In this document: positions 232 to 26,276 of the stretch, one piece after another
Position numbering within the stretch: position 1 is the first letter of the stretch
Layout: every line of letters starts with the position of its first letter
Source of the DNA: an uncultured Heliomicrobium sp.
Lineage (GTDB): Bacteria > Acidobacteriota > Blastocatellia > RBC074
Assembly: GCA_964383955.1 (NCBI GenBank)
Contig: CAYLJQ010000002.1
Coordinates: 1-33,776 of the forward strand
Length of the DNA: 33,776 nucleotides
Direction: 5' to 3'
Program-made: the position numbers and the translations under genes
The notes under the pieces: generated by a model
What the model was told of the DNA's origin: nothing
Databases searched by the model: none
Seen by the model: the letters and a program-made list of their open reading frames with translations, nothing else

Positions 232-1398
232 TTACCCAAGCTGATTTCTAAACCGCCAGGCGCTGATCCCGACCAGCGCAACAGCAAATCCGACCAGCGC
301 CAGCATGTGAATCCAGATGGCTTCGATCCCTGCGCCTTTCAGCAAGATGCCGCGCGCAATCGTCCCAAAGTGACTGATCGGATTGAGCTGCGTAAACGGT
401 TGCATCCAACTCGGCATGGCTTCGATGGGCGTGGTCGCACCCGACAGCATTGAAAGCGGTGGATTGACGAAAAACGCCATCAACTGGGCTTGCTGCTGCG
501 TTTTGCTGAAGGTCGCCAAAAAGGTTCCGATTCCGATTCCCGCCAGCACGCACAACATTCCAGCGGTAAACAGCAACACCAAACTGCCGCGCATTGGCAA
601 ACCGAACACCAGCCAGCCGACCGTCAACGCCAGCACAATCTGCGTCGAAAGCAAAATAAACAGCGGGAAGATTTTGGCCGTCACGATTTCCGCAGCCTGC
701 GCCGGAGTCATCAGCAATTGTTCAATCGTTCCGGCTTCTTTTTCTTTGACCATCGTCGCCGACCCGATGATCGAACCATTCAGCACCAGCAAAATTCCCA
801 GCACGCCAGTGACGATAAACCATGCGCTTTCCAAGCCCGGATTGAACAGCAGCGCGATTTTGGCGACGAGTTTGCCGCGTGCGCTTCCCTGCCCGCCTTC
901 CATTTGCAACGCGACGGCGGGCGTATCTTTTGCGATTCGTTCGTTGAGCGCGGAAATCGTACGCGCAGCGTAGCCACTGGCGATTCCCGCCGTGTTTGAA
1001 TTGACCGCGTCCAGCAAAAACTGAAGGCGCGCGGTTTCGCGGCGTTGACGCCGTTCGGCAAAATCCGAAGGAACGATCAAGCCTGCATCCAGCTTTCCTG
1101 CGCTCAGTGCTTCGCCCAGTTCCGCAGAAGAGCGGAAAGATTCGGCCACAAAAAACGAACGGCTTTCGACAAAGGCCGAAACGACTTCGCGGCTGGCCGC
1201 CGTGTGGCTTTCGTCCACCACGCCCAGCCGCAAATTGGTCACTTCCGGATTCAGCGCGAAGCCGAAAATCAACAGTTGCACCGTCGGCGGCAATATCAAC
1301 GAAACAATCAATTTCTTGTCGGATTTGATCTGCCGCAGTTCTTTCATAAACAGCGGCCACAACCGCCAGCGACGAATTTTGTTGATCAAACTTTTCAT
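232..1398 (-). CDS. ABC-2 type transporter permease (YbhR/YbhS-like)
   Basis: 388-aa ORF. N-terminal TM segment, large extracytoplasmic loop, then five C-terminal hydrophobic helices, as is typical of ABC-2 permeases. GAGG RBS 5 nt before the ATG at 1398. Last gene of the efflux operon. Confidence 0.85.
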   Translation of the reverse strand: MKSLINKIRRWRLWPLFMKELRQIKSDKKLIVSLILPPTVQLLIFGFALNPEVTNLRLGVVDESHTAASREVVSAFVESRSFFVAESFRSSAELGEALSAGKLDAGLIVPSDFAERRQRRETARLQFLLDAVNSNTAGIASGYAARTISALNERIAKDTPAVALQMEGGQGSARGKLVAKIALLFNPGLESAWFIVTGVLGILLVLNGSIIGSATMVKEKEAGTIEQLLMTPAQAAEIVTAKIFPLFILLSTQIVLALTVGWLVFGLPMRGSLVLLFTAGMLCVLAGIGIGTFLATFSKTQQQAQLMAFFVNPPLSMLSGATTPIEAMPSWMQPFTQLNPISHFGTIARGILLKGAGIEAIWIHMLALVGFAVALVGISAWRFRNQLG

Positions 1399-1469: not shown

Positions 1470-2582
1470 TTAAGCTTCAACTTGCATATGGCGCATCTTC
1501 TTCCACGCCTTCAGAAAGAAAAACGTCCCAACCAGCGCTAACATCAGCGGCGCGTGCCAAACGGCAGGCCATCCGCCGCCGCGTACAAATCCATCGCGGA
1601 CAAGCTCGATGAAATAGCGCGCGGGGACAAAGGCAGAAATCCAACGAATGCCTGCCGGAATGTTCGACACAGGAAAGATGAATCCCGACAGCAGGAACGA
1701 AAGCAGAAACTGCACGCCCGCGACGGCTTGAATTGCGGCAGCTTGATTGGGAATCGAAACGCCGACCATCACGCCGAAACAGACGTTACAGAAAAAATAG
1801 AGTGCTGTGCCGACCAACAGCGGAGTCGGATCCCCCGCGATCTTCAGGTCAAACAGCGGAAAGGCAACCGCCAGCGCCAACACCCATTCGGCCAGGGCGA
1901 TGATGAAAAACGCGGCGATTTTTCCCAGCAGAAATTCATGCGCCGAAATACTGGAAACGTATACCTGCAAGATCGTCTTCTGCTCGCCTTCGCGCGACAT
2001 TGCCAGCGCGGCCAGCAGCGGCGGAAACAACGCCAACACGACGGCGAACGCGCCTGGCCCGATGAACTTCCGGGAAGAAGCGCCGGGGTTGTACCACATG
2101 CGCGTGTCGGCTTTGATTGCGGGTTTCGCGCTTTGTTTGTCACCGGCAATGCTTGCGGCAAAAGCGTTGGTCAACGCCGCCGCCTGCCCGCGCATGCTGT
2201 TGGCAGTGTTGGCGTCAACCGCATCAATCAACCATTGCACTTCGCTCGGTTGGCCGCGCAAGTAATCGCGCTCGAAATTTTCAGGGATCACAATCACGAC
2301 GCGCGCCTCTTCTGCCGCCATCATTTCTTCCGGGCGTTTGTCCGGCACCGACGGCACGATTCGAAATGTCAGCGAAGCGCCAAGCGCATCAATGTATTGG
2401 CGCGACAATGGCGTGCGGTCGAAATCCTGGACAACGACTGCGACTCCTTTGACCGAAAACGACAATGCAGTGCCAAGCAGCGCCAGCAAAATCAGCGGCA
2501 AGACCAGCGCCAGCGCCACCGTCAGTTTGTCGCGGAACACTTGCGTCAATTCTTTGCGGGTTTGAGCGATGATTCGTTTCAT
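1470..2582 (-). CDS. ABC-2 type transporter permease (YbhS/YbhR-like)
   Basis: The ORF track starts at TTG 2588. I prefer ATG 2582, which is preceded by GGAG (GGAGATTGAATATG). The ATPase stop TGA (2585-2587) lies 2 nt before that ATG, suggesting translational coupling. Same topology as the paralogous permease downstream. Confidence 0.85.
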   Translation of the reverse strand: MKRIIAQTRKELTQVFRDKLTVALALVLPLILLALLGTALSFSVKGVAVVVQDFDRTPLSRQYIDALGASLTFRIVPSVPDKRPEEMMAAEEARVVIVIPENFERDYLRGQPSEVQWLIDAVDANTANSMRGQAAALTNAFAASIAGDKQSAKPAIKADTRMWYNPGASSRKFIGPGAFAVVLALFPPLLAALAMSREGEQKTILQVYVSSISAHEFLLGKIAAFFIIALAEWVLALAVAFPLFDLKIAGDPTPLLVGTALYFFCNVCFGVMVGVSIPNQAAAIQAVAGVQFLLSFLLSGFIFPVSNIPAGIRWISAFVPARYFIELVRDGFVRGGGWPAVWHAPLMLALVGTFFFLKAWKKMRHMQVEA

Positions 2583-2584
2583 AT

Positions 2585-4591
2585 TCAATCTCCACTGGCG
2601 ACTTTGCCGTTTTGCCGCGCTTGTTCGACGACGGCGATGAATACATCTTCAAGCGAAAACCGTTCTTGTCGCGCTCTTTGCACTTGAATACCGGCGGTAT
2701 GCAGTCGTTGCGAAAGACGTCTGATTCCGGTGTCTGGCGCATCCTGCACCACGACATGCAACCGGTCACCGAACAGAGAGACGCGCCAACGATCCATTTC
2801 GCCTTTCAGCAAATCCGCCGCGCGTTGCGGCGCGTCGGTGATCAATTCGATCAGATTGTCTGCTTGCGCGGCTTTGATTCCGCTTGGCGTTCCTTCGGCA
2901 ACCAGTTCGCCCGCGACCATAAAGCCCAGCCGATTGCATTGCTCGGCTTCTTCCAGATAGTGCGTAGTGACCAGCACGGCGACGCCGCGATCCGCCAGTT
3001 GATTGATCATTCGCCAGAATGCGCGGCGCGCCAGCGGGTCAACGCCCGAAGTCGGTTCGTCCAGAAACAGCACGCTTGGTTCGTGCATGATTGCCGCGCC
3101 GAATGCCACACGCTGTTTCCAGCCGCCGGGCAATTCGCCGGTTTTCATCTGGCCGCGACCTTCCAAGCCGGAAAATTCCAGCACCCAGCGTTTCTTTTCT
3201 TCGCGCTCTTCAGGCGGGACTTGATACACGCCTGCGAAAAATTCCAGGTTGTCGTTGATCGTCAGATCGTCGTACAGCGAAAACTTCTGCGACATGTAGC
3301 CGATGCGCTGGCGCACGAAGCTGGAGCGCAAGCTGCCGCGCTCTCCGGCAAGCTCCATCTCGCCGTCGGACGCCGCAAGCAAGCCGCAGAGGATTTTGAT
3401 CGTTGTGGTTTTGCCCGCTCCGTTGGCTCCGAGCAGGCCATAAATTTCGCCGTATTTAACTTCGATGTTGACGTCTTTGACGGCGTGAAATGCGCCAAAG
3501 CGTTTGTGCAAATGGCGAGCGCCAATGGCGATTGCATCGGGTTGGCGCTGGCGAAATTCGCGCCGCCGTGGGAATGGGGACGCTTTCATTTCGCCGTTCA
3601 GATCACGAAGGATTGAAACGAACGCGTTTTCCAGTGTTGGCGAACCGCTGCCGATTTCGCGCACTTCAATCTCTGCTTCGCCCAGGGCTTTGCGCGTCAA
3701 CTGTTCACCCTGATTCAAATCGCTGACCATCACATCCAGCCGGTCACCGAACCGCTGCACATCGGCAAGCTCTGAAATCTTATTCAAGACTTCTTCGGCT
3801 TCGCTAAGCTTTGACGCGCGCACTTCCAACCGATGCAGGCCCAGATCGCGGCGAATTTCAGCGGGCGTGCCGATTTGATGAATCTCGCCATCGTGCATCA
3901 GCGCGACGCGTGTGCAGCGTTCGGCTTCGTCCAGATACGGCGTCGCAACGACAATCGTCATTCCGTCCGCTGACAACTGCGCCAGTGTGTCCCAGAATTC
4001 GCGGCGCGAAACAGGGTCAACACCCGTCGTCGGTTCGTCCAGCAGCAACAGCTTCGGTTCAGTGATCAGCGCGCAAGCCAGCGCCAGCTTTTGTTTCATG
4101 CCGCCGCTGAGCTTGCCCGCCAATCGGTCCGTGAAGCGATCCATATCGAACAGCTTCAGATAATGCTGGCCGCGTTCTGTGATTTCGCGGTTTCGCAGCT
4201 TTCGCAACTGGCCGACGTAGCGCAGGTTTTCTGCGACGCTCAAATCCTGGTACAGGCTGAATGTTTGCGTCAGGTAGCCAATCATTGAACGCGCATCACG
4301 CGCCGTTTGACCGTACACCGTCGCTTCGCCGCCAGTCGCCGCCATCACGCCGCCCAGAATCTGAAAGATCGAAGTTTTCCCTGCGCCGTCCGGCCCGATC
4401 AGACCGAAAATTTCACCGCGCCGGATTTCCAGATTCACGCCACGCACGGCTTCCAGCTCACCGTAGCTCTTGCGCAAGCCACGAATATGGATGGCCTTGC
4501 TGGCGCTGTCCGCCATCGCTGTTTCGCACGAACCAGCGACCGTTAAACTTCCATCGAAATAGTTTTGCGTTGCTTCCAGTAGCGCGCTCAT
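2585..4591 (-). CDS. ABC transporter ATP-binding protein with two fused nucleotide-binding domains (YbhF-like)
   Basis: 668 aa. NBD1: Walker A GPDGAGKTS, signature LSGGMKQK, Walker B LLLLDEPTTGVD. NBD2: Walker A GANGAGKTT, signature LPGGWKQR, Walker B VLFLDEPTSGVD. AAGGAGG RBS 6 nt before ATG 4591. Confidence 0.93.
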   Translation of the reverse strand: MSALLEATQNYFDGSLTVAGSCETAMADSASKAIHIRGLRKSYGELEAVRGVNLEIRRGEIFGLIGPDGAGKTSIFQILGGVMAATGGEATVYGQTARDARSMIGYLTQTFSLYQDLSVAENLRYVGQLRKLRNREITERGQHYLKLFDMDRFTDRLAGKLSGGMKQKLALACALITEPKLLLLDEPTTGVDPVSRREFWDTLAQLSADGMTIVVATPYLDEAERCTRVALMHDGEIHQIGTPAEIRRDLGLHRLEVRASKLSEAEEVLNKISELADVQRFGDRLDVMVSDLNQGEQLTRKALGEAEIEVREIGSGSPTLENAFVSILRDLNGEMKASPFPRRREFRQRQPDAIAIGARHLHKRFGAFHAVKDVNIEVKYGEIYGLLGANGAGKTTTIKILCGLLAASDGEMELAGERGSLRSSFVRQRIGYMSQKFSLYDDLTINDNLEFFAGVYQVPPEEREEKKRWVLEFSGLEGRGQMKTGELPGGWKQRVAFGAAIMHEPSVLFLDEPTSGVDPLARRAFWRMINQLADRGVAVLVTTHYLEEAEQCNRLGFMVAGELVAEGTPSGIKAAQADNLIELITDAPQRAADLLKGEMDRWRVSLFGDRLHVVVQDAPDTGIRRLSQRLHTAGIQVQRARQERFSLEDVFIAVVEQARQNGKVASGD

Positions 4592-4933: not shown

Positions 4934-6148
4934 TTATCGGTTGGTTGCAACCCATTGATTGCCTTGAACCAGCACTTCGCCGTCGGCAGGCATTCCAGGT
5001 TTGGCAAACCCTTGCGGGTTTGTCAGTTGCAGCTTCACGCCGACGACTTGCTTGATGCGGTCGTTCTGAAAGTACGTGTTTTCCGGCGTGAACGAAGCTT
5101 GCGGATCAATGCGCGAAACCATCGCGTCCAGTGGTTGTTTCGGGTCGGAATCCAGAAACACACGCGCCATTTGGCCTGTGCGCACGCGTCCGATTTCGCC
5201 TTCGGGAATGAACGCGCGCAGATAAACCTGCCCCGGATTCAGGATGGTCAAAATTGCCGTGCCCGGCGAAACAATCTCTCCCGATTCGGCGGAACGCGTT
5301 GCCACCGTGCCTTCAAACGGCGCGATGATCTGCAAATCGTTGCGGTCAGCTTCGGCTTCCTGCAACTGTGCGCGGCTTCTAGCGACTTCGGCTTCGGCGG
5401 ATTGAATGTCCGACTGCGCCTGCAAAATTTGTTGTTCGACGGACGCAGCCTGCGCAGCGCGAATCGCCGGGTTATCCAGATTCGCCTTTGAAGTTTGCAA
5501 CGCACCGCGAGCGGCTTCGACCTGTTTGCGCGCAGCTTCGACAACGGCTTTGTGCGCCACGGCGGCGGTTCGCGCCTGTTCGCCTTCGCGCGCGGGAACG
5601 TCGCCCTGATCGGCCAACGTGGTAAAGCGTTCTTCATCAGCACGCGCCTGCCTGTAATCTGCGTCGGCTTTGGCCAACGAAGCTTCCGCGGAAGCAACGT
5701 GTGCTTGCGCCTGACTGACGCGGCCTTCGGCGTCCACGCGCGCCTGGCTGACACCTAACCGGCTCTGCTCTAGCTGCGCTTGCAGAACGGCGATTTGCTG
5801 GCGCGAGAAGCGTAATTTGGCTTCACTGCGTTCGACGTTTGATAACTCCTGCTGCACGCGCGCGTTGACTTGATCGTCGTCCAGCACGGCGACGACCTGA
5901 CCGGCTTTGACGTGATCGCCTTCGCGGACGGTGATTTCGCGAATGCGCCCGGAAGTCTTGGCCGCCACAATGGCGTCATCGCTTTCAATGCGTCCGCTGA
6001 CTGCAATGATTTCTTTTGGCGCGGACGACTGGCGCAGGAAAAACCACCCGGCTGCCGCTCCGCTGAGTAAAGTAACAAGAAGAATGACGCGAACGATCTT
6101 TTTCTTGTGGCTGATTTTGCTGTTGTTTTCGTTGTTGTTCTTAGTCAT
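4934..6148 (-). CDS. HlyD-family membrane-fusion (periplasmic adaptor) protein, YbhG-like
   Basis: 404 aa. N-terminal TM anchor (IVRVILLVTLLSGAAAGWFFL), long A/Q/E/R-rich coiled-coil hairpin, flanking barrel-sandwich segments (GDHVKAGQVVAVLDD ... IIAPFEGTV). AAGGAGGG RBS before ATG 6148. Confidence 0.9.
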   Translation of the reverse strand: MTKNNNENNSKISHKKKIVRVILLVTLLSGAAAGWFFLRQSSAPKEIIAVSGRIESDDAIVAAKTSGRIREITVREGDHVKAGQVVAVLDDDQVNARVQQELSNVERSEAKLRFSRQQIAVLQAQLEQSRLGVSQARVDAEGRVSQAQAHVASAEASLAKADADYRQARADEERFTTLADQGDVPAREGEQARTAAVAHKAVVEAARKQVEAARGALQTSKANLDNPAIRAAQAASVEQQILQAQSDIQSAEAEVARSRAQLQEAEADRNDLQIIAPFEGTVATRSAESGEIVSPGTAILTILNPGQVYLRAFIPEGEIGRVRTGQMARVFLDSDPKQPLDAMVSRIDPQASFTPENTYFQNDRIKQVVGVKLQLTNPQGFAKPGMPADGEVLVQGNQWVATNR

Positions 6149-6277: not shown

Positions 6278-7990
6278 TTAGCGGCTGGCCAGCGCGACGT
6301 TATTGCTATCCAGTGTGGTAGACATCGCGCGCTGAAGCTCAGCGGCGGCTTTGTTGTAATCGGTCAGCGCCTTCAACTCTCGCCCGCGCGCAGCCGACAA
6401 AGCGTTTTGCCGATCCAGCACGAAGTAGTTTGTCGATTGCCCGGCGTCGAACTTCCGCTGTTCGCTCTGATACTGAAGCTCTGCGTTCGTACGTGAATTC
6501 GCCGCCGCTTCGACTCTGCGCTTGGCGGTTTCGACGGCTTGCAGCGCGTTGCGGACTTCGACTTCGATTTGCTGTTCGGTTCGCTGGCGTTCCGTGTCCA
6601 GCTTTTTGCCTTCGGCCAGTGCGCGACCGTATTGCGCTTTTGCCGTGCGATTGCGCAGCGACAAATTGATCGAAACGCCTACGCGGAACGTGCGATAGTC
6701 GTTGCTGAACATATTGCCCAGGCTCTGCCCGTAATCGCCCAGGAATTTGTCTGGCGTTGCGCCGAAGGAAATCGGCGGCAACGTGGGCAGCCCTGCGAAT
6801 TCGGAAAGCTTGTTGATCCGGTCAAACAGCAGTTGATTGCTTTCGACAATCGGATTGGTTCCCGTCCGCGCCTTGCCCGCCAAGCCAATCGTGCCGTAGC
6901 TGGCAATCAGGTTGATTTCCGGTTTGGTTTGATCGCGAAAATACTGCACATCAATTTTGTTCATCTCCTTGCGCACACGGTATTGCTCCATTTCCTGGCG
7001 GTTGTTGAATGCCATTCGAATCGCGTCATCCACAGGCAAAGCCGGTTCAGGCTTCAATTGCGGTTGTTCGGCAGGAACCAGCGCGGAGTTCCATTGTTCG
7101 CTGCTTCCTGCTGGCAGCATCAACGCCTTCAGGCCGTTTTCGGCGCGCTGAATGGATTCGATGGCGGCTTCGGCTTCATCCACACGGCGTTCGACTTCGA
7201 CGCGGGCAGAAACCACATCCGCCGGAGCCAGCGTGCCTTTCGCAACCAATCGTTCGTTGTGCTCCAGTTGTGTGCGTGCCAGTTCCACCGATTCGCGCTT
7301 GATGTCGGCATCGCGCCGCGCGAAAACCAAATCCCAATACGCGCGTTCCACGCTGGCGATGATTTCTATCGCGCGCTGGCGGAACTGGCTGTCCGAAAGG
7401 TCCAGCCGTTTGCTGGCGATGCGAATCTGGCGGCGTTCGGCATCAATCTGCCGGTTGCGGAAGATTGGCTGCGTGAAATCCACAGATAAGCGCGAAGTGA
7501 ATTGCGGATTCAGCGAATTGAACAGGTTGTCGCTGGTCGCGCGGCTTTGGTCGTAACTGACGCTGACCTGGCCGCCCTGCCACGGCAATCGTTTCGACAG
7601 CGTCGCCGAGCCTGTAAATTCGGTGGTTTGCAGCCGACCGTTTTCACTGCCCATCAGGATCGAAGCCACAGGCGTGTTTTGCCGTTGGTAAACCATGCTG
7701 CTGGTCAACGACGGGTCATAAACGCTTTTGGCAGCGCGCAAATCAAATTCATTCAACTGTGTGTTGATCCGTTCGATTTCGATGTCGCGGTTGTTGTTCA
7801 GCGCCATCATCACGGCGTCGCGCAACGTCAAATTGATCTGTTTGTCGTTGGCAACGCCGACGCGCGGCGCTGGCGTGGGGGGCTGCTGTGCCAGCGCAGA
7901 TGACGATCCCGAAACGGCCAGCACTGCAACAAATACTCCGGATAACCAATTCGCTTTCAGTTTTTCCTGCATCGTGGTTCTTTTAGACAT
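6278..7990 (-). CDS. TolC-family outer-membrane efflux protein
   Basis: 570 aa. Signal peptide ([18 protein letters not shown]). Internally duplicated architecture with long coiled-coil segments and C-terminal motifs typical of outer membrane factor proteins ([15 protein letters not shown]). GGAGGAGG RBS before ATG 7990. Confidence 0.9.
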
Positions 7991-8114: not shown

Positions 8115-8516
8115 TTACGGAAACTGAATCTCGTCCTCGTTCGTGGCGAATAAAACAGCAATGGCAATGCCAATCGCGATGCCGACGCCAATGGCGATCT
8201 TGGCTCCTGTGGAAAGGTTGTGGCCCTTGATCTTGCCGACCTGTGGATACGTCACCGTGGACGTTCCTTCGTTTCTGGGATTGATGACGGTGAAGGACTC
8301 TTCCCCGGCTTCACTGATAAACCCTTCCAGCCTGGCGTGGTCTTTCAGTTCCAGTTTCACCAGAGCCTTTTCTCCGGTGCCAAGCTTCTGAATCGCGGCT
8401 TTGATCTTGGCCGTTTGCCGGGCAGCCTTTTCCGTTGGCGTTTTAGCCAAAGCGAACACAGCCAGAACATTGGTCAACGCGACGGTCAGAATCATCACGG
8501 TTACTTTTTTGAACAT
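8115..8516 (-). CDS. Hypothetical exported protein with C-terminal glycine-zipper TM anchor
   Basis: I prefer ATG 8516 (MFKKVTVMIL...), preceded by AGGAGGGAG, over the ORF-track start at 8570. N-terminal signal peptide (ILTVALTNVLAVFALAKTP), a small beta-rich core, and a C-terminal GAKIAIGVGIAIGIAIAVLF helix. Confidence 0.7.
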   Translation of the reverse strand: MFKKVTVMILTVALTNVLAVFALAKTPTEKAARQTAKIKAAIQKLGTGEKALVKLELKDHARLEGFISEAGEESFTVINPRNEGTSTVTYPQVGKIKGHNLSTGAKIAIGVGIAIGIAIAVLFATNEDEIQFP

Positions 8517-8943: not shown

Positions 8944-9342
8944 TTATTGCCCGTCCACACAGCCTGCGGCGGCTTTGGCAGCGGCGTACGCGTCCAGCGG
9001 CGACAGCATCACAATCAGCATCCAGATGGGGATAGTGATCAGTGTGCAAATCACGCCCTTCAACCATCCCTGCGTTTTCTGCGCCGAAGTTCTGGCGGAC
9101 ATGCTTTCGGCAACAACCCGTATCAACCGGCCAGAGTAGGTGGTGTAGCTTTCGGAATCGCCTTGCAATAGCTTCGTTTCGTTGCCCAACCTCTGTGCCA
9201 GGTCGGTCGAAGTAGCGTACCGGTTCATTTGACTAACGCCGCAACGGCGGCAGAATTTGTCGTGGTCGCGCAATTCAGCAGTGCAGGCGCAACATAATTT
9301 CAAGCCAATGGTTTCTGTCATTTCCGTTATTGGGTGTGTCAC
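8944..9342 (-). CDS. Hypothetical zinc-ribbon protein with C-terminal TM helix (tail-anchored)
   Basis: GGAGGAG (9354-9348) lies 5 nt before GTG 9342. CxxC-x10-CxxC motif (CCACTAELRDHDKFCRRC) near the N-terminus. One hydrophobic helix (VICTLITIPIWMLIVMLSPL) near the C-terminus. Confidence 0.65.
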   Translation of the reverse strand: MTHPITEMTETIGLKLCCACTAELRDHDKFCRRCGVSQMNRYATSTDLAQRLGNETKLLQGDSESYTTYSGRLIRVVAESMSARTSAQKTQGWLKGVICTLITIPIWMLIVMLSPLDAYAAAKAAAGCVDGQ

Positions 9343-9411: not shown

Positions 9412-9427
9412 TGCAAGGCCCTTGCCA
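9412..9427 (-). promoter_or_regulatory. Sigma-54 (RpoN) -24/-12 promoter facing the zinc-ribbon/STAS operon
   Basis: The minus strand reads TGGCAAGGGCCTTGCA. This matches TGGCACG-N4-TTGCW with correct GG-N10-GC spacing and one mismatch. It lies about 70 nt upstream of GTG 9342 and about 280 nt downstream of the sigma-54 activator gene. Confidence 0.7.
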
Positions 9428-9507: not shown

Positions 9508-9576
9508 AGTGCCGAAGCCAAGTGCCGAAGCCTTTCGCGCCGAGGTTCCGGCGCGCGCCGATATTTCGGCGCGAAA
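9508..9576 (-). promoter_or_regulatory. Candidate enhancer (UAS) repeats about 80-150 bp upstream of the sigma-54 promoter
   Basis: Tandem direct repeat AGTGCCGAAGCC (9508-9519, 9521-9532). It is followed by the 11-bp perfect inverted repeat TTTCGCGCCGA (9533-9543) / TCGGCGCGAAA (9566-9576), which encloses the palindrome CGGCGCGCGCCG (9549-9560). A T-rich tract (GTTTTATTTTTGG, 9477-9489) lies between these sites and the promoter. Confidence 0.4.
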
Positions 9577-9589: not shown

Positions 9590-9706
9590 AAGGAAGAAAC
9601 CACTGATGGACACAGATCAACACAAATGAGCACAGATCATATTTTCAACTTACCTGTGTCTATCTGCGTGAATCTGTGTTTATCAGTGGTTAAAGCCGCT
9701 TCCTTC
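9590..9706. repeat. Long imperfect palindromic element abutting the stop codon of the sigma-54 activator (possible terminator)
   Basis: AACCACTGATGGACACAGAT (9598-9617) pairs with ATCTGTGTTTATCAGTGGTT (9672-9691) at 18/20 positions. Outer arms AAGGAAG (9590-9596) and CTTCCTT (9700-9706) also pair. CACAGATCA is repeated inside. The spurious ORF 9509..9835 (+) runs through it. Confidence 0.7.
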
Positions 9707-9709: not shown

Positions 9710-12700
9710 TTAGCTTTGGCGTCCAATGCCAAGCTTCTGCATTTTGGATTGCAGGGTGGTGCGCTTCATGCCCAGCCGCGCCGCTGCGCCTTGGGGACCG
9801 CCGACGATCCAGTTGGTTTCTTCCAGCGCGCGTAAGATGTGTTCACGCTCGGCATCATGAAGTGTGGCGAGTTCCGTCACAGGAGCCGGTTCGGAGGATT
9901 TCAATTCGGCCAGGGAAACTTCCAGGCTGTCGCCGCGCGTCAAAATCACAGCGCGCTCGATGAAATGTTCCAGTTCGCGGACGTTGCCCGGCCAGTGGTA
10001 ATTGGTCAGCGCAGTCATAATTTCAGCTGGAATCGAAGTGATTTGTTTTTTCAACCGCCGCGCATATCGCTGCGTGAAAAAACGGGTCAGGGCGGGAATG
10101 TCTTCGCGGCGCTGACGAAGCGGCGGAATCGTAATGGGAAACACATTCAACCGGTAAAACAAATCGCTGCGATACTTTCTATCGGCAACCATTTGTTCCA
10201 GATCGCAGTTGGTGGCGGCAATCAGGCGAACGTCAACTTTTTGTGTGCGCGTGCTGCCCAACCGTTCAAACTCCTGTTCCTGTAAAACGCGCAACAGCTT
10301 CGGCTGCAAATCCAGCGGAATGTCGCCAACTTCATCCAGAAACAGCGATCCGCGATTCGCCAGTTCAAATCGGCCTACGCGCTGCGAAATCGCGCCGGTG
10401 AACGCGCCCTTTTCGTGGCCGAACAACTCGCTTTCCAGCAAGCCGGTGGGAATCGCCGCGCAATTGATTTTGACCAGCGTGCGTTCGCGGCGGTCGCTGA
10501 GGTCGTGAATGGCGCGGGCGATCAATTCCTTGCCGGTTCCGGTTTCACCGCAAATCAGCACCGTGGAGCCAGTTGGCGCAACGGTTTCCACCTGTTTCAA
10601 AATTCGCTTGAAGGTCTGGCTTTCGCCGATCAGTTCTTCGAAATTGTGCTGGGTGCGAATTTCGTCTTCCAGGTACAGCTTTTCGCTGGTCAGTTTGTTT
10701 TTCAGCGCTTCGATTTCGCGGAACGCCAGCGCGTTTTCAACCGCAAGCGCAACCTGATTGGCAACCTGGCAAAGCAATTCTTTCTCATCTTCATTCAGAT
10801 TGGCTTCGCGATAGCTGGCCACCGCCAGCGTGCCCAGCTTGCGTCCGTGCGCGATCAGCGGAACCACACCGCCGGATTTTAGACCTGCGGAGCGGAATCG
10901 GTCGCTAAAACCAGACTGAAACCGCTGCTCATCAATCCGGTCGTGAAAGACCGGTTGCCCGGACATAAAGGCCGAACCACTAAGCGAGCTTTCCAGCGGA
11001 ATCGGCGTTCCCTCTTCAATGGCAAACTGTTTGTCCAGGGATTCGTAGGCATAAGCCCGCAATTGATTGGTGTCAGGATCGTAAAGCGCCAGGCCCACCA
11101 CATCGTGAAGCGAAATTCGGCGCAAAGAAACCGAAATGACCTGGATCAAACTGCGCAAATCAAGTTGCGCCACCATGGCGTTGTTGATTTCCAGCAACAG
11201 CTGCCTGCGGTCTGAGTGGCGATTGGCTTCTTCCTCCGCGGTGCGAATGCGCTCAAAGTTCAACGCATTTTCAACTGCGATGGCGACTTGTCCGGCAATC
11301 TGCATAAAGAGCTCGCCATCGGCTTTGGTAAAGGCGCACTCGGTTTTACTGGCGATGCTCATTGCGCCGATGATGCGGTTTTTCCGTAACAGCGGAACGG
11401 AACAGTTTGCACGAATGCCCTGGCTTACCGCGCGGCGCACCACTTCCGCGGGGAATTGTTTCAGGTAATCCGGCCCCGTAACCACAGGTTGTTTTGTCCG
11501 TATGGCCAAACCAACAGGCGTATCCACCAACGTGGCAATCTGGCCTTCCTGCAAAAAATCTATTTCTTCGCCACGATCCAGCAAGTGCACGCGCAAGATG
11601 TCTTGCTGATCGTCGTACAACCCCATTACGGAGTAATCATGCCGAAACACCTGGCGCAGCGAGGCCGAAACTGCCTGAAACAACGAGGGTAAATCCAGCG
11701 CGGAAGCGATGGCGTTGTTGACCTGTAAAAGCAATTGCAACCTGTCAGATTGACGGTTGGCTTCTTCTTCGGCGGCGCGCGTGCGTTCAAAGTTGAGCGC
11801 GTTTTCCACAGCGATGGCAATCTGATTTGCGCTTTGGCAAAGCAGTTCCCGATCTTCGGCAGAAAACGCAAACGGGCGTTTGCTGGCGACTCCCAATGCT
11901 CCCAGCTTGCGACCGTGCGCAATCAGCGGAATGTTGCAGGCCGACCGCAAACCTGCATTGTATGAACGCCGGGTGAAATCGGAAGGAAACCGTTCCAGGT
12001 CGAATTGATCCAGAAACACAGGCTCTCCCGAAGTATAAGCCACCCCCATGGCGCTGCCTTCCAGTTCGATCAGATAGCTTTCCTCAACCAGATTCATTTG
12101 CTCCGGGAAATCTGTCATGACCACGCGCAGCTTGTTGCTTTCTGGATCGTAAAGCGCAACGCCAGTGGTGTCGTTATGCACTGTTTTCCGCAAGGAGCGC
12201 GAAACAACTTGCAGCAATTCACGCAAATTCAGTTGCGAAACGACGGCATTATTGATTTGCAGCACCGTGCTGAGACGGTCGGACTGGTGCGTCGCCTCCT
12301 GCTCGGCTTCCCGCGCGCGCTGGAAGTTCAACGCATTGTCCACCGCGATGGCAATCTGCCCGGCAATCTGGCCAAGCAACTGTTGATGCTCTTCAGGAAA
12401 CGCATCTTCACGAAAACTGCCCACACCCAGCACGCCGAGCTTGCGGCCATGCACAATTAACGGCACACAACCGCCCGATTCAATTCCCGCTTCGATAAGC
12501 TGCTTATTGAAATCGGAGACGCTGGCTGTAGGGTCAACCCGGTTGTAAAAGATCGGCTGCCCGGAAGTCAGCGCCAATCCACCCAGGCTTCCTTCCATGG
12601 GAACCAGCGTCCCCTGCTGAATAGACAGTCGTTTATCCGGAGAGTCATACGCGTAAGCGCGAAGCTGATTGTTTTTTTCGTCGTATAGCGAAAGTCCGAC

Positions 12701-14467
12701 AATCTCGTGCCCCAGAACTTCCCGCAAACAAGCGGCGGTCACACGCACCAATTCCCGCAAATCCAAGTGAGAAACTGTGGCGTTGTTGACATCCAGCATC
12801 AGGCGCAGACGTTCGAACTGGCGCTTCACTTCCTGTTCAGCGTTTCTTGCTCGCTCAAAGTTGAGCGAATTTTCCAGCGCGATGGCCACTTGTCCGGCGA
12901 GATTGCTGAACAATTCCAGGTCTTGATCTGTAAATCGCTCTTCCTGCGTGCTGCTGATGCCAACGATGCCCAGCTTGCGGCCATGCGCACTGAGCAAAGC
13001 CAGACAGGCGGATTTGGGGCTGCCTGCAACAGGTTGCTGGGAAAACGGGTCGGCAGGATATGCAGCCGGATCAGGCCGTTTTATCAAAAGCGGCTGTCCG
13101 GTAAGAAAGACCTTTCCGGCGGGCGTTCCTTCCAGCGGGATCACATCTCCTTCTCGAAACGTTTCCAGGTCCTTGTAGGAAACGTTTTTGTATTCGCGCA
13201 ACTGATTTAGCTCAGGTTCGTACAGCGCAATCCCCGCCGCGTCATGCGGCATGACATCGCGCAAACTTGCGGAGACGGTTTTCACCAGTTCGCTCAGATC
13301 CAGATGCGAAACGACGGCGTTGTTGATTTCCAGCAACAACCGTATGCGGTCGCGTTCGCGCGCGGCTTGCTGTTCCGTGTCGCGCGCGCGCTCGAAGTTC
13401 AAAGCATTTTCAACCGCGATGGCAATTTGATTCGCGCACTGCATCAACAACGCGACATCCGCTTCATTGAAAGCGTTCTCGCTCAAACTCACCACGCTCA
13501 AAGCGCCAAGCGTGCGATCGTGTGAGATCAGCGGCACGGCGCAGCCCGATTTGACGCCATTGTCCGCCGCTTTGCGCACCCAGGGCGAAGAAAACCTGTT
13601 GAGATCCAGCACAGGACCAACCAGCACGGGCTGGCCGGATGCGATGGCTTCTCCTTCAGGAGTGTTTTCCGCCGAGATTCCTGTACCTTCTTCAATTGAA
13701 ACGTTGCCGAATATTTGCAAGTCCAGAGCTTGCAGGTGCAGTGTGGAGGTTTCGGGATCGTACAGGGATAAAAGCGCCGCGTCGTGCGGAATCGCCTGGC
13801 GCAGGCAAGTGGAAATTACATCCAACAGCTCTCTCAGACCCAGTCGCGAAACAACGGCATTGTTGATTTCCAGCAGCAGGCGCAAGCGGTCGCGTTCCCG
13901 CGCCAGTGCGGCTTCAGCGGCGCTGGCGTTTTCAAAGTTCAAGGTGTTGTCCACCGCAACCGCCACCAGCTTCGCCACCTGTTGGAAAAGCTCCTGGTCG
14001 TGATCGCCCCAGGCATTTGGGTGCAAGCTTCCAAAACCGATTGCTCCTAATCTACGCCCCGCAGATGTCAGCGGTAAAACATAGGCTGTTTTGATGCCGC
14101 GTTGTTTGAGGCCTGGAATTACACGCGAATAGCGTTTTTCGTAAGCACCGAGATCGGTAATCAAAAACGGCTGCTGGGTTTGCCACACCGTTCCGGCAGG
14201 CGCGTCTTCGATGGGCAGTTCGGTGGGAATTTGTGAGCCGTCGAATGTCGTCGTCTCCAGGACGTTCATTCGCATCATGTTGCTTTCCGCGTCATACAAA
14301 ACAATGTTCACGCCATCGAATTTGACGACAAGTTGCAGGCGGCTGGTCAAATCTCTCAGCAATGATTTCAGGTCACGATGCACGGAAATGGCTTCCGCGA
14401 CTTCAAGCAGCGCCCGATATTGTCGCAGTTCGGCATTGTCTAGCGGTGGTCGAGGGTCAACGCTCAT
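9710..14467 (-). CDS. Sigma-54-dependent transcriptional activator (bEBP) with seven tandem GAF domains, AAA+ domain and Fis-type HTH
   Basis: 1585 aa. C-terminal AAA+ sigma-54 interaction module: Walker A GETGTGKE, signature ESELFGHEKGAFTGA, Walker B SLFLDEVGD, WPGNVRELE. Terminal HTH AARLGMKRTTLQSKMQKLGI. It is preceded by seven ~179-aa GAF-like units, each joined by a conserved (A/V)VENALNFER...DRLxLLLEINNAVVSxLDLxEL helix. Confidence 0.92.
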   Translation of the reverse strand: MSVDPRPPLDNAELRQYRALLEVAEAISVHRDLKSLLRDLTSRLQLVVKFDGVNIVLYDAESNMMRMNVLETTTFDGSQIPTELPIEDAPAGTVWQTQQPFLITDLGAYEKRYSRVIPGLKQRGIKTAYVLPLTSAGRRLGAIGFGSLHPNAWGDHDQELFQQVAKLVAVAVDNTLNFENASAAEAALARERDRLRLLLEINNAVVSRLGLRELLDVISTCLRQAIPHDAALLSLYDPETSTLHLQALDLQIFGNVSIEEGTGISAENTPEGEAIASGQPVLVGPVLDLNRFSSPWVRKAADNGVKSGCAVPLISHDRTLGALSVVSLSENAFNEADVALLMQCANQIAIAVENALNFERARDTEQQAARERDRIRLLLEINNAVVSHLDLSELVKTVSASLRDVMPHDAAGIALYEPELNQLREYKNVSYKDLETFREGDVIPLEGTPAGKVFLTGQPLLIKRPDPAAYPADPFSQQPVAGSPKSACLALLSAHGRKLGIVGISSTQEERFTDQDLELFSNLAGQVAIALENSLNFERARNAEQEVKRQFERLRLMLDVNNATVSHLDLRELVRVTAACLREVLGHEIVGLSLYDEKNNQLRAYAYDSPDKRLSIQQGTLVPMEGSLGGLALTSGQPIFYNRVDPTASVSDFNKQLIEAGIESGGCVPLIVHGRKLGVLGVGSFREDAFPEEHQQLLGQIAGQIAIAVDNALNFQRAREAEQEATHQSDRLSTVLQINNAVVSQLNLRELLQVVSRSLRKTVHNDTTGVALYDPESNKLRVVMTDFPEQMNLVEESYLIELEGSAMGVAYTSGEPVFLDQFDLERFPSDFTRRSYNAGLRSACNIPLIAHGRKLGALGVASKRPFAFSAEDRELLCQSANQIAIAVENALNFERTRAAEEEANRQSDRLQLLLQVNNAIASALDLPSLFQAVSASLRQVFRHDYSVMGLYDDQQDILRVHLLDRGEEIDFLQEGQIATLVDTPVGLAIRTKQPVVTGPDYLKQFPAEVVRRAVSQGIRANCSVPLLRKNRIIGAMSIASKTECAFTKADGELFMQIAGQVAIAVENALNFERIRTAEEEANRHSDRRQLLLEINNAMVAQLDLRSLIQVISVSLRRISLHDVVGLALYDPDTNQLRAYAYESLDKQFAIEEGTPIPLESSLSGSAFMSGQPVFHDRIDEQRFQSGFSDRFRSAGLKSGGVVPLIAHGRKLGTLAVASYREANLNEDEKELLCQVANQVALAVENALAFREIEALKNKLTSEKLYLEDEIRTQHNFEELIGESQTFKRILKQVETVAPTGSTVLICGETGTGKELIARAIHDLSDRRERTLVKINCAAIPTGLLESELFGHEKGAFTGAISQRVGRFELANRGSLFLDEVGDIPLDLQPKLLRVLQEQEFERLGSTRTQKVDVRLIAATNCDLEQMVADRKYRSDLFYRLNVFPITIPPLRQRREDIPALTRFFTQRYARRLKKQITSIPAEIMTALTNYHWPGNVRELEHFIERAVILTRGDSLEVSLAELKSSEPAPVTELATLHDAEREHILRALEETNWIVGGPQGAAARLGMKRTTLQSKMQKLGIGRQS
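10720..14400 (-). repeat. Intragenic tandem array: 7 diverged GAF-coding units with ~535-540-nt period
   Basis: The conserved linker coding motif (NALNFER) recurs at approximately 13945, 13405, 12865, 12330, 11795, 11260 and 10735. Units are diverged in sequence, so this is ancient duplication rather than an assembly artefact. Confidence 0.8.
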
Positions 14468-14782: not shown

Positions 14783-17417
<2,635 letters not shown>

Positions 17418-23210: not shown

Positions 23211-25427
23211 CTACCGAAAATTTTCCATCAGCATGATTTCGTCGTAGGGGTTTTCCAAATGCGCGTAAAGCAGGCGGCGGCCATCGGCTGACAGGGCCAG
23301 CCCAGGCATCCACCAAAGTGGCGCGTCCGTGACCGTGAACAGCGCTGTGGTGCGGCGCGTGTCAAAACTGAAAAACTGGATTGCCCATTCTGATTCGTCC
23401 TTTTTGAGGGGAAAACAAACTCCTTCCTTGACCAGCGCCCACGACCGCCAATACCCCGCCTCCTTCAATTCCGGAACCAGTGTTTCTTCCCCGCCATTGA
23501 CCGGTACGGAATAAATACCGCGAATGCCACGGTCTTTGGAGTAGTAGAACCGCTTGCCGTCCGGCGACTCGAAGCCTTCGAAACCGCCGCTAAAGGTGAT
23601 TTGCCGGGCCTGACCACCGGCAACGGGCATTCTATAAAGCTGGTTACTGCCGGTGCGATTCGATCTGAAATAAACCCATTGCCCGTCGCGCGACCAGGCG
23701 GGCAGATTTTCCGACGACTTATCGGGGGTCAGCCTGCGCGGGGGGCTGTCCCCCGACGCGCTGATCACATAAATATTTCCATCCCCCTCGTCATACGAAT
23801 CAAAGGCAATCCACTGGCCGTCGTAAGACCAGCGCGGTGAACCCGCCGAACCGTCTCGTGTCAGCAGGCGCGCGGCGGTTTTCCCTTCGGCATCACACAT
23901 CCAAAGCCCCTGCCGGCCACTGCGATCCGAAGCAAAAACAATCGTTTCCCCATCCGGCGAAAAGATCGGACTCTGGTCGTCGTAAAGCGAATTCACCGGC
24001 AGTTTGACGGGTGCGCCAAATTTGTCCGGCACCTCGCGGCCCGCAAAGCCCGCGCCCCGATACAGCGACAGGTTTACATCATTGGCATATTCCGTGAAAA
24101 CCAGCTTGCCGCCCTGCCGCGAGATGTCCGGGGTGATTGGATTGCGAGCATTGACGGCCACCCGCGCAGGTGTCCAGCCTTGCACCGAAACGCGCCACAG
24201 CCCGCGTGTGCCCTGGCGCGTGGCGCTAAAGACGATTTCGCGGCTGTCACTGGTCCAGGCCAGACCGGAAATGGCAGTCCGCTCAAAAGTTAATTGTTGC
24301 GGCGTGCCTCCGCTGGCGGGCACGATACAGATGTCCACCTGGTTTTCGCCAAAGTCGCGAAAAAAGGCCACTAGCTTTCCATCCGGTGAAAATTCCGGGA
24401 AATGATCCGCCAGGGACGGCTCCGGTGTGGTCAAGCGGGTGCGCTGGCCTGTTTCCGGATTCACCAGCACGATGCATTGGCCTTCCGCCGACCCAGGGCG
24501 ACCGCTCACCGCCAGCGTTTTGCCATCCGGCGACCAGGACGCCGTCGTGAAGGTTTCCGCCAGCTTTTGCTCCGGCCCGCCACTGGCGGGCACGCGCATC
24601 ACTTCGCCCTTGCCAGATCGTCCGCGCACGAAAGTCACGTATTTGCCGTCCGGCGTCCAGGAGGGGAAATTGTCATTTTCGGGCGCCGTCGTCAGCCGCA
24701 GGGGCGGTTCGTCCGTGCCAATCATCTTGACGTAAATATCGGCGGGGCCGGCCTCCTCGACACGGCCTCCATCCCAGGCAAAGGCAATGCGGCTTTCATC
24801 AGGAGAAATCGCGGCGTGGTCCTTCCGGCCCGCCTGGCCGACCAATGGCACAAACCGCGGTTCGCCCGCCGGTCTTTTCTCCACGCCATTGCGCGCCGCC
24901 AGCCAGCGATAACCGGCAAATCCCAACCCACTTGCCAGCACCAGCGCAAGGGCCAACCCTGTCAGAGAGTGGGCCCGCCACAAGGGCTGTCTGGCGACAG
25001 ATTGCGCGACTGCTTCCAGCGAGCCCGGCTTGTCAGTTTCCTGGCGCTCGCCCGGTACCTTGTTGTCACGCGCCGTCTCAGACCGCCGCGCAGGCTGAGC
25101 ATTGCTGCTGTCGGGCGCGGTCAAATCCAATTGCGCCAGCGCCTCCATACGCGCACGCACGCTCTGGTAACGCTGGTCACGCTCTTTGACCAGCAGCCGG
25201 CTGATGAGTTCCTGCAAAGTGCCGGTCGCCTCGTCAACAAACTGCCGCAGCGGCGGCGGTTCCTTGTCCAGCAGCGCGGCGAAGACTTCGGCAGTGGAAG
25301 AGCCCGCAAAAGCCGGTTCCCCTGTCAACATTTCGTAAAACACTACCCCCAGACTGAACACATCCGTCCGCGCATCCAGCTTCAGCCCGCGCGCCTGCTC
25401 CGGCGACATGTAACGCGGTGTGCCCAT
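23211..25427 (-). CDS. C-terminal fragment of a Ser/Thr kinase: kinase C-lobe, TM helix, TolB-like PD40 beta-propeller
   Basis: Starts exactly at the P+1/APE segment (MGTPRYMSPEQ ... DVFSLGVVFYEMLTGEPAF). TM helix LTGLALALVLASGLGFAGY. Many PD40-type repeats follow (SPDGK.IAF, WSPDGKTLA, FSPDGETIVF, WSRDGQWVYF). Confidence 0.85.
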   Translation of the reverse strand: MGTPRYMSPEQARGLKLDARTDVFSLGVVFYEMLTGEPAFAGSSTAEVFAALLDKEPPPLRQFVDEATGTLQELISRLLVKERDQRYQSVRARMEALAQLDLTAPDSSNAQPARRSETARDNKVPGERQETDKPGSLEAVAQSVARQPLWRAHSLTGLALALVLASGLGFAGYRWLAARNGVEKRPAGEPRFVPLVGQAGRKDHAAISPDESRIAFAWDGGRVEEAGPADIYVKMIGTDEPPLRLTTAPENDNFPSWTPDGKYVTFVRGRSGKGEVMRVPASGGPEQKLAETFTTASWSPDGKTLAVSGRPGSAEGQCIVLVNPETGQRTRLTTPEPSLADHFPEFSPDGKLVAFFRDFGENQVDICIVPASGGTPQQLTFERTAISGLAWTSDSREIVFSATRQGTRGLWRVSVQGWTPARVAVNARNPITPDISRQGGKLVFTEYANDVNLSLYRGAGFAGREVPDKFGAPVKLPVNSLYDDQSPIFSPDGETIVFASDRSGRQGLWMCDAEGKTAARLLTRDGSAGSPRWSYDGQWIAFDSYDEGDGNIYVISASGDSPPRRLTPDKSSENLPAWSRDGQWVYFRSNRTGSNQLYRMPVAGGQARQITFSGGFEGFESPDGKRFYYSKDRGIRGIYSVPVNGGEETLVPELKEAGYWRSWALVKEGVCFPLKKDESEWAIQFFSFDTRRTTALFTVTDAPLWWMPGLALSADGRRLLYAHLENPYDEIMLMENFR

Positions 25428-25444
25428 TACTGCGCCCGCCCCGG

Positions 25445-26260: not shown

Positions 26261-26276
26261 TTGGAGAGTAAACGGT

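Follow-up and report, generated by a model that had tools for sequence, protein, structure and literature searches.

Do sensor domains strung together on one transcription factor report separate signals, or do they act as a single unit? The question is raised by a gene in a 33,776-nucleotide (nt) stretch of DNA from an uncultured bacterium (contig CAYLJQ010000002.1 of assembly GCA_964383955.1, positions 1 to 33,776; hereafter the window), which encodes a sigma-54 activator with seven tandem GAF units and stands beside an efflux operon. The array had been singled out in an earlier prediction that a model made from the letters of the window (hereafter the original prediction). Comparison of the gene with its relatives indicates that the sensor array is modular: cassettes of 178 amino acids (aa) have been gained, lost and exchanged in the linker helices, while the output domains, the enhancer, the promoter and the pump have stayed constant.

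A seven-unit GAF array on a predicted enhancer-binding protein

The gene and its parts are located in the window as follows; HTH stands for helix-turn-helix, and the letter types of the units are those of the clustering described below.

9710..14467, minus strand: coding sequence of the 1585-aa sigma-54 activator (7 GAF + AAA+ + HTH), from the open reading frame (ORF) and its translation, Pfam and homologue P0002
13931..14467, minus strand: GAF unit 1 (U1), aa 1-179, N-terminal 'cap' of type L
13391..13930, minus strand: GAF unit 2, aa 180-359, type O
12854..13390, minus strand: GAF unit 3, aa 360-538, type A
12320..12853, minus strand: GAF unit 4, aa 539-716, type B
11786..12319, minus strand: GAF unit 5, aa 717-894, type H
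11252..11785, minus strand: GAF unit 6, aa 895-1072, type D, for which another type is substituted in the 9-GAF orthologue
10718..11251, minus strand: GAF unit 7, aa 1073-1250, type E
10652..10792, minus strand: 47-residue helix, aa 1226-1272, leading from GAF7 to AAA+ (ENALAFREIEALKNKLTSEKLYLEDEIR), a candidate signalling helix by AlphaFold2 and a heptad scan
10133..10633, minus strand: AAA+ domain for interaction with sigma-54, aa 1279-1445, carrying the Walker A and B motifs and GAFTGA (Pfam, motifs, Foldseek)
9914..10117, minus strand: AAA+ lid domain, aa 1451-1518 (Pfam AAA_lid_14)
9731..9862, minus strand: Fis-type HTH_8 DNA-binding domain, aa 1536-1579 (Pfam)

The ORF begins with ATG and is intact over 4758 nt and 1585 aa. 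Three Pfam GAF models each recognise seven separate stretches of the protein (GAF_2, PF13185, E = 5.9e-119; GAF, PF01590, E = 1.3e-100; GAF_3, PF13492, E = 6.7e-64), and every one of the seven units both matches GAF profiles and is predicted to adopt the GAF fold. A linker motif, N-x-L-x-F, recurs at residues 174, 354, 533, 711, 889, 1067 and 1245, with spacings of 180, 179, 178, 178, 178 and 178 aa (534, 537 or 540 nt in the DNA). The seven consecutive GAF units and the regular period of about 179 aa (about 537 nt) that the original prediction had described are thus confirmed, and unit alignments likewise agree with its claim that the inter-domain linker is the most conserved stretch of the unit.

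The units themselves are well diverged, at 26-51% identity in protein and 40-61% in DNA, with unit 1 the most divergent (26-30% identity to the other six). The pair that had been proposed as closest, units 4 and 7, is indeed among the most similar (50.6% in protein), but it is not uniquely so, as U5-U7 reaches 51.1%. Tandem Repeats Finder detected no repeat inside the gene, the units being too diverged for it, and since the program is blind to such units we took the repeat period from the protein motif and from a DNA repeat search. The latter found no long exact repeats within the gene. Because of these two results we regard the array as old, and not as an artefact of assembly or low complexity.

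The C-terminal output part carries the defining features of a bacterial enhancer-binding protein (bEBP), namely PF00158 with Walker A and B motifs, a GAFTGA loop and a Fis-type HTH. Sigma54_activat (PF00158) matches aa 1279-1445 with E = 5.9e-71; Walker A (GETGTGKE) lies at 1307-1314, GAFTGA at 1354-1359 and Walker B (LFLDEVGD) at 1375-1382, so that, with AAA_lid_14 and HTH_8, all the elements of the output first read from the motifs have been located. The gene is accordingly annotated by us as encoding a functional, GAF-regulated group III bEBP, its activity being predicted.

Copy number among homologues

A homologue search over 5.8 billion proteins returned 496 matches at E <= 1e-50. Units were counted with a hidden Markov model (HMM) of the unit in the 120 best homologues, a list that is ranked by bit score and so favours long arrays. 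The lengths of the homologues form a ladder (about 871, 1048, 1220, 1404, 1585, 1761, 1939 and 2116 aa), and the number of GAF units among these 120 ranges from 3 to 10, distributed as follows.

3 GAF units: 11 proteins
4 GAF units: 31 proteins
5 GAF units: 38 proteins
6 GAF units: 13 proteins
7 GAF units: 11 proteins
8 GAF units: 9 proteins
9 GAF units: 5 proteins
10 GAF units: 3 proteins

Across 649 units the unit length is nearly always 178 aa. At least seven units are present in 28 of the 120 best homologue clusters. The original prediction had presented a seven-sensor bEBP as an undescribed architecture; we found no paper that describes one, and that part of the claim stands, but seven is only one value in a range of 3-10. 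Proteins of this family also have database entries already, named generically or wrongly ('GAF domain-containing protein', 'sigma 54-interacting transcriptional regulator' and the JGI name 'formate hydrogenlyase transcriptional activator').

The comparative data come almost wholly from metagenome assemblies. In the metagenome-assembled genome (MAG) CAZXHW01, an orthologue of the activator is split across two contigs, L016 (3381-4766) and L007 (33-4472); L016 ends after recF-gyrB and 2 GAF units, and L007 begins with 6 GAF units followed by the efflux operon (related loci are numbered L001 onwards and homologous proteins P0002 onwards). Assemblies can therefore break inside the array, and copy numbers from short-read MAGs need to be treated with care.

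The named sources of the homologues are mostly MAGs of Acidobacteria, Blastocatellia and Pyrinomonadaceae, with one from Verrucomicrobiales. The records of L006, L007, L010, L016 and L018 are titled 'uncultured Heliomicrobium sp.' (Bacillota/Heliobacteriaceae at NCBI), and all the other relatives are labelled Acidobacteriota/Blastocatellia. The Heliomicrobium labels of the closest MAGs are probably wrong, as they conflict with those of the relatives and the gene content, with extracytoplasmic function (ECF) sigma factors and PD40 kinases, fits Acidobacteriota. The host of the window activator is most likely a member of the Acidobacteriota.

Whole cassettes differ between orthologues

Activators at the syntenic locus, recognised by recF-gyrB at one flank, the efflux operon at the opposite flank, or both, carry 3, 4, 5, 7 or 9 units.

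3 GAF units at the syntenic locus: L005, L012
4 GAF units at the syntenic locus: L002, L009, L010, L011
5 GAF units at the syntenic locus: L008, L013
7 GAF units at the syntenic locus: the window, L001
9 GAF units at the syntenic locus: L003

When the 649 units were clustered at 55% identity (an arbitrary threshold) from an HMM-aligned identity matrix, they fell into 46 types, 15 of which have at least 17 members. Written as strings of types from the N-terminus, representative arrays read as follows.

Window protein: L O A B H D E
9-GAF orthologue: L O A C d B H B E
Other 7-GAF orthologue: L A C B H E E
4-GAF orthologue: L C H E
10-GAF proteins: M F A C C C N B H D

The 121 proteins have 88 distinct strings between them, and 95% of ordered type pairs obey the majority order. 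The arrays are therefore colinear subsets or expansions of a common order, and not random shuffles. A separate clade with the five units J K A G I is stable. The type in the last position, next to AAA+, varies (D, E, I, A or B), and in 33 of the 121 proteins one cassette type is used twice.

The closest view of these changes comes from the comparison of the window protein with its 9-GAF orthologue. The two are 99% identical (protein) over the AAA+-HTH part, where the synonymous divergence (dS) is 0.30. Among the cassettes of this single gene dS differs four-fold, with values of about 0.3 for U1, U5 and U7, 0.6-0.7 for U2 and U3 and 1.25 for U4, and U6 is replaced in the 9-GAF orthologue by a cassette that is just 42% identical. 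The ratio of nonsynonymous to synonymous divergence (dN/dS) is 0.06-0.14 for the six cassettes that the two proteins share and 0.018 for the output part; all six shared cassettes are under purifying selection, which we take, together with the near-constant unit length, as a sign that every cassette is functional. In 60-nt bins the DNA identity is 91-98% up to aa 900, 35-56% over aa ~921-1060 and 85-98% from aa 1081, and because the drop is confined to aa ~921-1060 the replacement of U6 is bounded by the two linkers. A linker is likewise the site, at aa 540-560, of the junction of the two-unit insertion or deletion that separates the same two proteins.

For the extra or foreign cassettes, the most similar units (85-87%) are found at equivalent positions in other proteins, and the best unit-to-unit identity within proteins has a median of 0.51 and a maximum of 0.77. 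These two results indicate that relatives differ mainly by the loss, retention and recombinational exchange of ancient types. Recent internal tandem duplication was considered as the main source of the differences and was rejected on the same grounds, the median best identity within a protein being 0.51 and the nearest relatives lying in other proteins. The several rounds of duplication that had been proposed are consequently not what separates the members of the family: the units are ancient types, and whole cassettes are lost, inserted or replaced.

Variation between types is greatest in unit columns 71-80 and 101-120, where conservation within types is 0.69-0.75 as against 0.29-0.40 globally. 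On the predicted structures these segments map approximately to the beta2-beta3 loop and to the stretch following beta4, a loop with a short helix. Such elements of GAF domains cover the ligand pocket; we take the variable segments to line it, and their conservation within types would be an indirect sign that small molecules are bound there.

Predicted structure of the array and its linkers

Two AlphaFold2 monomer models were made from homologue alignments, one for residues 1-716 (U1-U4) and one for residues 717-1585 (U5-U7 and the output part), with mean predicted local confidence (pLDDT) of 83.3 and 78.4, respectively. All seven units are predicted with an identical order of GAF helices and strands. 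Adjacent GAF domains are joined in the models by a single uninterrupted helix of 53 residues (155-207, 335-387, 514-566, 870-922 and 1048-1100), with the U4-U5 helix (692-744) divided between the two models. The continuous linker helices that had been suggested from the sequence are thus supported by the predictions, which give 53 residues between GAF domains and 47 into AAA+. The other proposals of the original prediction, a coiled coil through the whole array, the integration of several ligands and a switch that depends on length, are hypotheses.

Foldseek searches placed the array nearest to PDE2A (3IBJ, 1MC0), PDE5A, PDE6, CyaB2 (1YKD) and phytochromes, the best matches (3IBJ, 1MC0, 3LFV and 1YKD) having E-values of 7e-13 to 5e-12 at a sequence identity of 13-18%, and the output part nearest to ZraR, NtrC1, DmpR, NtrX and NifA. 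The N-terminal model was used for the array, as AAA+ matches dominate the search with the C-terminal model and make it uninformative on this point. A PDB sequence search with two units found no close solved relative of the GAF units and returned only weak matches, the nearest being 3K2N (E = 9e-6), a structural-genomics GAF domain of a sigma-54 regulator.

A candidate enhancer and sigma-54 promoter beside the gene

On one strand the gene order is recF, gyrB, the activator, an intergenic region and then the efflux operon. The intergenic region 3' of the activator measures 334 nt to the boundary of an ATG-initiated ORF at 9375, or 367 nt to a probable GTG start at 9342, and contains three features.

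9598..9691, minus strand: long imperfect hairpin after the activator stop (folding, -46 kcal/mol, z -7.6)
9508..9576, minus strand: candidate enhancer (upstream activator sequence, UAS), consisting of two palindromes GCCGA-N4-TCGGC and then two direct TTCGGCAC repeats, conserved in orthologous loci
9412..9427, minus strand: putative sigma-54 type -24/-12 promoter TGGCAAGGGCCTTGCA, from a consensus match and conservation across loci

The promoter sequence TGGCAAGGGCCTTGCA (9427-9412) is one mismatch away from TGGCAC-N5-TTGCW, and its -24 element has its 5' end 70 nt ahead of the probable GTG start. A search for the sigma-54 consensus in the window of ~34 kb alone gave 27 matches where 25 were expected, which is not significant; we make the promoter call because its position is conserved across loci, and not because of the consensus match in the window. 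The -24/-12 element is found at the same position in all five of the loci fetched first (L001, L002, L003, L004 and L005). Both this element and the TTCGGCAC repeats were detected in the window and in eight distinct orthologous loci (L001, L002, L003, L007, L008, L010, L011 and L013; L006 and L003 are one contig), and in each of these the repeats begin exactly 102 nt upstream of TGGCA. Conservation across loci extends to the 5' leader and the Shine-Dalgarno sequence. A conserved TGGCA-N6-TTGC element with a repeat block 102 nt upstream of it offers candidate activator sites near a -24/-12 promoter.

The hairpin at 9598-9691 begins 18 nt past the stop codon (first arm base 9691) and has 38-nt arms with an internal periodicity of 10 nt (CACAGATCAA-like). 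The orthologous intergenic regions of L001 and L002 lack it, and it could be a terminator or insulator, or a small inserted repeat element. Rfam searches of the intergenic region and the 5' leader gave only sub-threshold miRNA-type matches to the long hairpin and no riboswitch. A scan of sigma-70 promoters and terminators, which is uninformative for this organism, found no promoter-like sites, and its terminator-like matches were fewer than expected from shuffled sequence.

The adjoining efflux operon

The operon downstream of the intergenic region comprises the following genes.

8944..9342, minus strand: first gene of the operon, with a probable GTG start at 9342, for a Zn-ribbon protein of 132 aa that ends in a hydrophobic segment
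8567..8893, minus strand: 108-aa STAS-like protein (weak Pfam match)
8115..8516, minus strand: 133-aa small protein with hydrophobic N- and C-terminal segments, found in the closest relatives only
6278..7990, minus strand: TolC-like outer membrane efflux protein (OEP)
4934..6148, minus strand: membrane fusion protein (MFP), an HlyD / RND_mfp adaptor
2585..4591, minus strand: ABC ATPase with two nucleotide-binding domains, DrrA type (TIGR01188, 461 bits against a cut-off of 312)
1470..2588, minus strand: ABC-2 permease 1
232..1398, minus strand: ABC-2 permease 2

Across orthologous loci the pump genes are 64-96% identical. A second subgroup of the family, represented by P0013 (8 GAFs) and P0004 (10 GAFs), has the activator at the end of an operon of OEP, MFP and resistance-nodulation-division (RND) genes. 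Because this subgroup joins the ABC-2 loci, we regard the activator family as tied to tripartite efflux pumps. In the RND-type locus L004 the operon is headed by a sigma-54 element and then a Zn-ribbon homologue, and a STAS-like gene stands just before the activator. Judging from the gene order and the conserved sites, the activator most likely switches on the adjoining efflux operon.

The assignments of the STAS-like and Zn-ribbon proteins are weak (E of about 2e-3 and 3e-4, respectively, below the Pfam cut-offs), and a Zn-ribbon homologue is not detectable in L005. Genes of these two kinds accompany multi-GAF activators regardless of pump type and gene order, as seen in the window, L004 (1879-2220 and 9399-9650), L017, L019 and L077. 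This co-occurrence with either type of pump suggests that the two genes are part of the regulatory module and not of the pump.

What the cassettes may do

The explanation that we consider best, and probable by a slim measure, is that the cassettes are independent inputs, taken together with the rest of a model in which dimers bound at the enhancer are blocked by their GAF array, ligands relieve the block and the pump is induced. Activator dimers would bind the repeat block at 9508-9576, and in the resting state the GAF array, through a helical spine, would prevent the AAA+ domains from assembling into the active ring. The block would be lifted when individual cassettes bind small molecules, the signal being passed along the helices to the last helix of 47 residues. 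The AAA+ ring would then assemble, sigma-54 RNA polymerase would open the promoter and the pump operon would be transcribed. A fixed module of 178 aa with a connector of 53 residues would keep the helical register whatever the number of cassettes, which would explain why insertions and deletions of whole cassettes are tolerated. Each cassette type would be one input channel, the types probably differing in the pump substrate or stress metabolite that they detect, and variation in copy number would retune the spectrum of inducers.

Several points weigh against this explanation. If orthologues with 3 and 9 GAF units drive the same operon, most cassettes would be individually dispensable, and dispensable cassettes fit a role in gain or spacing as well as they fit separate inputs. 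The conservation of the variable segments within types owes something to shared ancestry. The structural models are of monomers, and their predicted TM-scores (pTM) are only 0.38-0.39, so the geometry between domains and a coiled-coil spine are not established by them; in a simple heptad scan the hydrophobic occupancy of a and d positions in the linker helices is 0.50-0.67, modest for a canonical coiled coil, and this signal is compatible with such a structure but not compelling. The copy numbers come chiefly from metagenome assemblies, at least one of which is broken inside the array (L016/L007). Finally, no sigma-54 gene was seen in the window, the gene lying outside it.

A plug-and-play sensor is possible, though we think it unlikely to be the right description. 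Here each of some 15 or more cassette types would recognise a different toxic compound or metabolite, any one occupied cassette would free the AAA+ domains (an OR gate), so that a single activator would turn on a multidrug exporter for many inducers, and swaps of cassettes would retune the inducers of the exporter.

It is likewise conceivable, if not the outcome we expect, that only one or two GAF units sense a ligand, for example the one adjacent to AAA+, and that the rest, no longer able to bind ligands, form a dimerising rod that sets stability, cooperativity, gain or reach, copy number tuning the threshold and not the specificity. In cyclic nucleotide phosphodiesterases (PDEs) only one of the two GAF domains binds cGMP, an analogy for such a division of labour, and PDE-type tandem GAFs are the closest structural analogues of the array. 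The control of one conserved operon by orthologues of 3 to 9 units would suit a rod, as would the repeated use of a cassette type in about a quarter of the proteins (33/121), and the exact 178-aa period and highly conserved linkers point to structural constraint. However, the shared cassettes are under similar purifying selection (dN/dS 0.06-0.14) and their variable segments are conserved within types, the AAA+-adjacent unit varies in type like the others, and 88 architectures in 121 proteins exceed the diversity that the tuning of length would need.

We give rather little credence to the idea that the array binds protein partners and not small molecules, with the Zn-ribbon and STAS-like proteins docking on it, so that feedback of the PspA/PspF kind or by partner switching would couple pump expression to the state of the envelope. 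The two genes do accompany the activator in ABC-type loci and in the differently ordered RND-type loci (L004, L017, L019 and L077), and they are the first genes after the sigma-54 promoter. Against this, their assignments fall below the Pfam cut-offs, L005 has no detectable Zn-ribbon homologue, and docking would leave the diversification of the GAF cassettes unexplained. Docking is, however, compatible with the explanation by independent inputs as an additional layer.

That the window activator is an orthologue of FhlA, the formate hydrogenlyase activator, is highly improbable, and we rejected this identification. JGI names many of the homologues so, and the score with the NCBIfam FhlA model, 839.7 bits, exceeds the cut-off of 830, but this margin of 10 bits arises only through summing six stretches over the repeated GAF domains, the best stretch covering profile positions 182-689; moreover, neither the window nor any related locus that we examined carries hyc, hyp or fdhF genes, and the neighbour is an efflux operon. 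The JGI name 'formate hydrogenlyase transcriptional activator' is probably an over-call. Homologues P0003-P0035, among others, carry it, in what looks like systematic mis-annotation caused by the domain repeats. The equivalog models for NifA (463.4 against 528.85) and NorR (418.8 against 476) stay below their cut-offs, and the window activator is neither of the two.

Although genes with repeats are prone to misassembly and one related MAG has the gene on two contigs, there is hardly any chance that the seven-unit array is an assembly artefact or a decaying pseudogene, a reading effectively refuted by the intact 4758-nt ORF, by units just 40-61% identical in DNA with no long exact repeats, by the independent homologue P0002 (91% identical, of equal length at 1585 aa and present on five contigs) and by the low dN/dS.

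Comparison with known systems

The window activator resembles the group III bEBPs NorR, PexR, NifA, FhlA and Aquifex Nlh1/Nlh2 in having an N-terminal GAF region, a helical linker, an AAA+ domain with GAFTGA and a Fis-type HTH, and in its multi-site candidate enhancer about 100 nt upstream of the -24/-12 promoter. It differs from NorR, PexR, NifA and Nlh1/Nlh2, which have one GAF domain, in having seven (3-10 in its family); FhlA has two. In contrast to known group III bEBPs, the number and composition of GAF domains here differ between orthologues, and the probable target is an efflux pump, whereas theirs are nitric oxide detoxification, peroxide defence, nitrogenase and hydrogenlyase. The GAF domain of NorR and PexR autoinhibits AAA+ as long as the signal is missing, and three dimers are recruited by way of three UAS sites (PMC2941729; PMC12754779). 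A common relay is a signalling helix about 40 residues long (PMC1592074).

In the predicted structure, GAF domains are strung on a long connecting helix as in the tandem GAF-A/GAF-B of PDE2A, PDE5, PDE6 and CyaB2. The connecting helices of the latter form a dimer spine and relay ligand binding to the catalytic domain. The window protein is unlike them in having seven GAF domains and not two, in its sequence identity of 13-18% and in its output, an AAA+ ring in place of a cyclase or phosphodiesterase, and the likeness does not imply the binding of cyclic nucleotides. Multi-GAF cyanobacteriochromes (such as NpF2164 with its GAF5) share with it the presence of many GAF domains in one protein, and theirs is the only setting we found in the literature where many GAFs are discussed as separate input channels (PMC8707292). 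Cyanobacteriochromes, however, bind bilins, sense light and have outputs of the kinase or methyl-accepting chemotaxis protein type, and nothing here suggests a chromophore. In the literature searched, discussion of proteins with many GAF domains is confined to cyanobacteriochromes and phytochromes, and that of tandem GAFs to PDEs and CyaB2.

Giant multi-GAF histidine kinases have the same kind of GAF unit in head-to-tail arrays and a single output, but their output is HisKA/HATPase_c and their GAF copies number 7-20. The seven-unit profile, searched against 1.84 billion representatives, matched 8010 proteins at E <= 1e-30, and the best 150 of these include proteins of 2000-3950 aa with 10-20 matched stretches (for example P0121, P0125, P0135 and P0154). 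By Pfam, P0121 has 19 GAFs with HisKA/HATPase_c and P0125 has 15 GAFs with HisKA. Sorting 148 new representatives by output, with two ad hoc phmmer queries and with Pfam on 3 of them, gave 81 histidine kinases (mostly of 7-13 units), 7 bEBPs and 60 proteins with another or no recognised output. The giant proteins with named sources come from MAGs of Chloroflexota/Anaerolineales, kinases of this sort being found in others as well. Long GAF arrays with one output are therefore not unheard of among known sequences, as histidine kinases with 7-20 such units are numerous; we found no description of these kinases in the literature.

The pump resembles ABC-2 exporters of the DrrAB and YbhFSR types with MFP and TolC, having an ATPase of the DrrA subfamily (above the cut-off), ABC-2 permeases, an RND_mfp adaptor and a TolC-like protein. 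Regulators of the TetR, MerR or two-component type usually govern pumps of this kind from sigma-70 promoters, unlike the putative sigma-54 control by a multi-GAF activator here. The literature searched, which leaves most subscription journals outside and so gives absence of evidence only, yielded nothing on sigma-54 activators with many GAF domains or on the control of pumps like this by sigma-54 in Acidobacteria. What is already known, then, are the parts and the general logic; what is new is the length of the array on a bEBP, the polymorphism of cassettes among orthologues with a fixed target and the link to efflux.

Other features of the window and related loci

A Ser/Thr kinase with PD40 repeats (23211-26350, minus strand), downstream of an ECF sigma gene (26277-26849), consists of two ORFs in different frames. 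The break interrupts the activation segment, with DFGLAK on one side and GTPRYMSPEQ on the other, and coincides with a repeat rich in proline and serine (SLRPSVPPSLHLS). L005 has a similar split (177 aa + 789 aa). The split could be a frameshift, a pseudogene or a real arrangement of two genes.

The gyrB gene of L002 (5104-8961), beside the 4-GAF orthologue, encodes 1285 aa with an intein (Intein_splicing), and that of the window (14783-17308) encodes 841 aa without an intein. A 2241-aa ORF on the plus strand (27029-33754) matches only He_PIG (putative Ig) domains and has a G+C content of about 0.61, as against about 0.54 elsewhere; it is probably a giant surface protein.

Significance

Studied GAF-type sigma-54 activators use one or two GAF domains, whereas here a signal would have to travel through as many as seven to ten of them in series to reach a single AAA+ ring. 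The family described here amounts to a natural experiment in which the same output, enhancer, promoter and pump are combined with 3 to 9 sensor cassettes in many combinations. It makes it possible to test whether tandem sensors act as independent inputs or as a cooperative unit, and how helical linkers relay signals over long distances. The findings also connect drug-type efflux in Acidobacteriota, a soil phylum that is dominant yet has been little studied, with probable control by sigma-54, and draw attention to a recurrent mis-annotation as 'formate hydrogenlyase transcriptional activator'.

If the plug-and-play sensor were true, the activator would be a natural, evolvable transcription factor with multiple inputs, in which soil Acidobacteriota swap, add and delete cassettes by recombination in linker helices that preserve the register. 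The rules of its 178-aa module and 53-residue connector could then be copied for synthetic biosensors, and the same logic may hold for the histidine kinases with 7-20 GAF domains.

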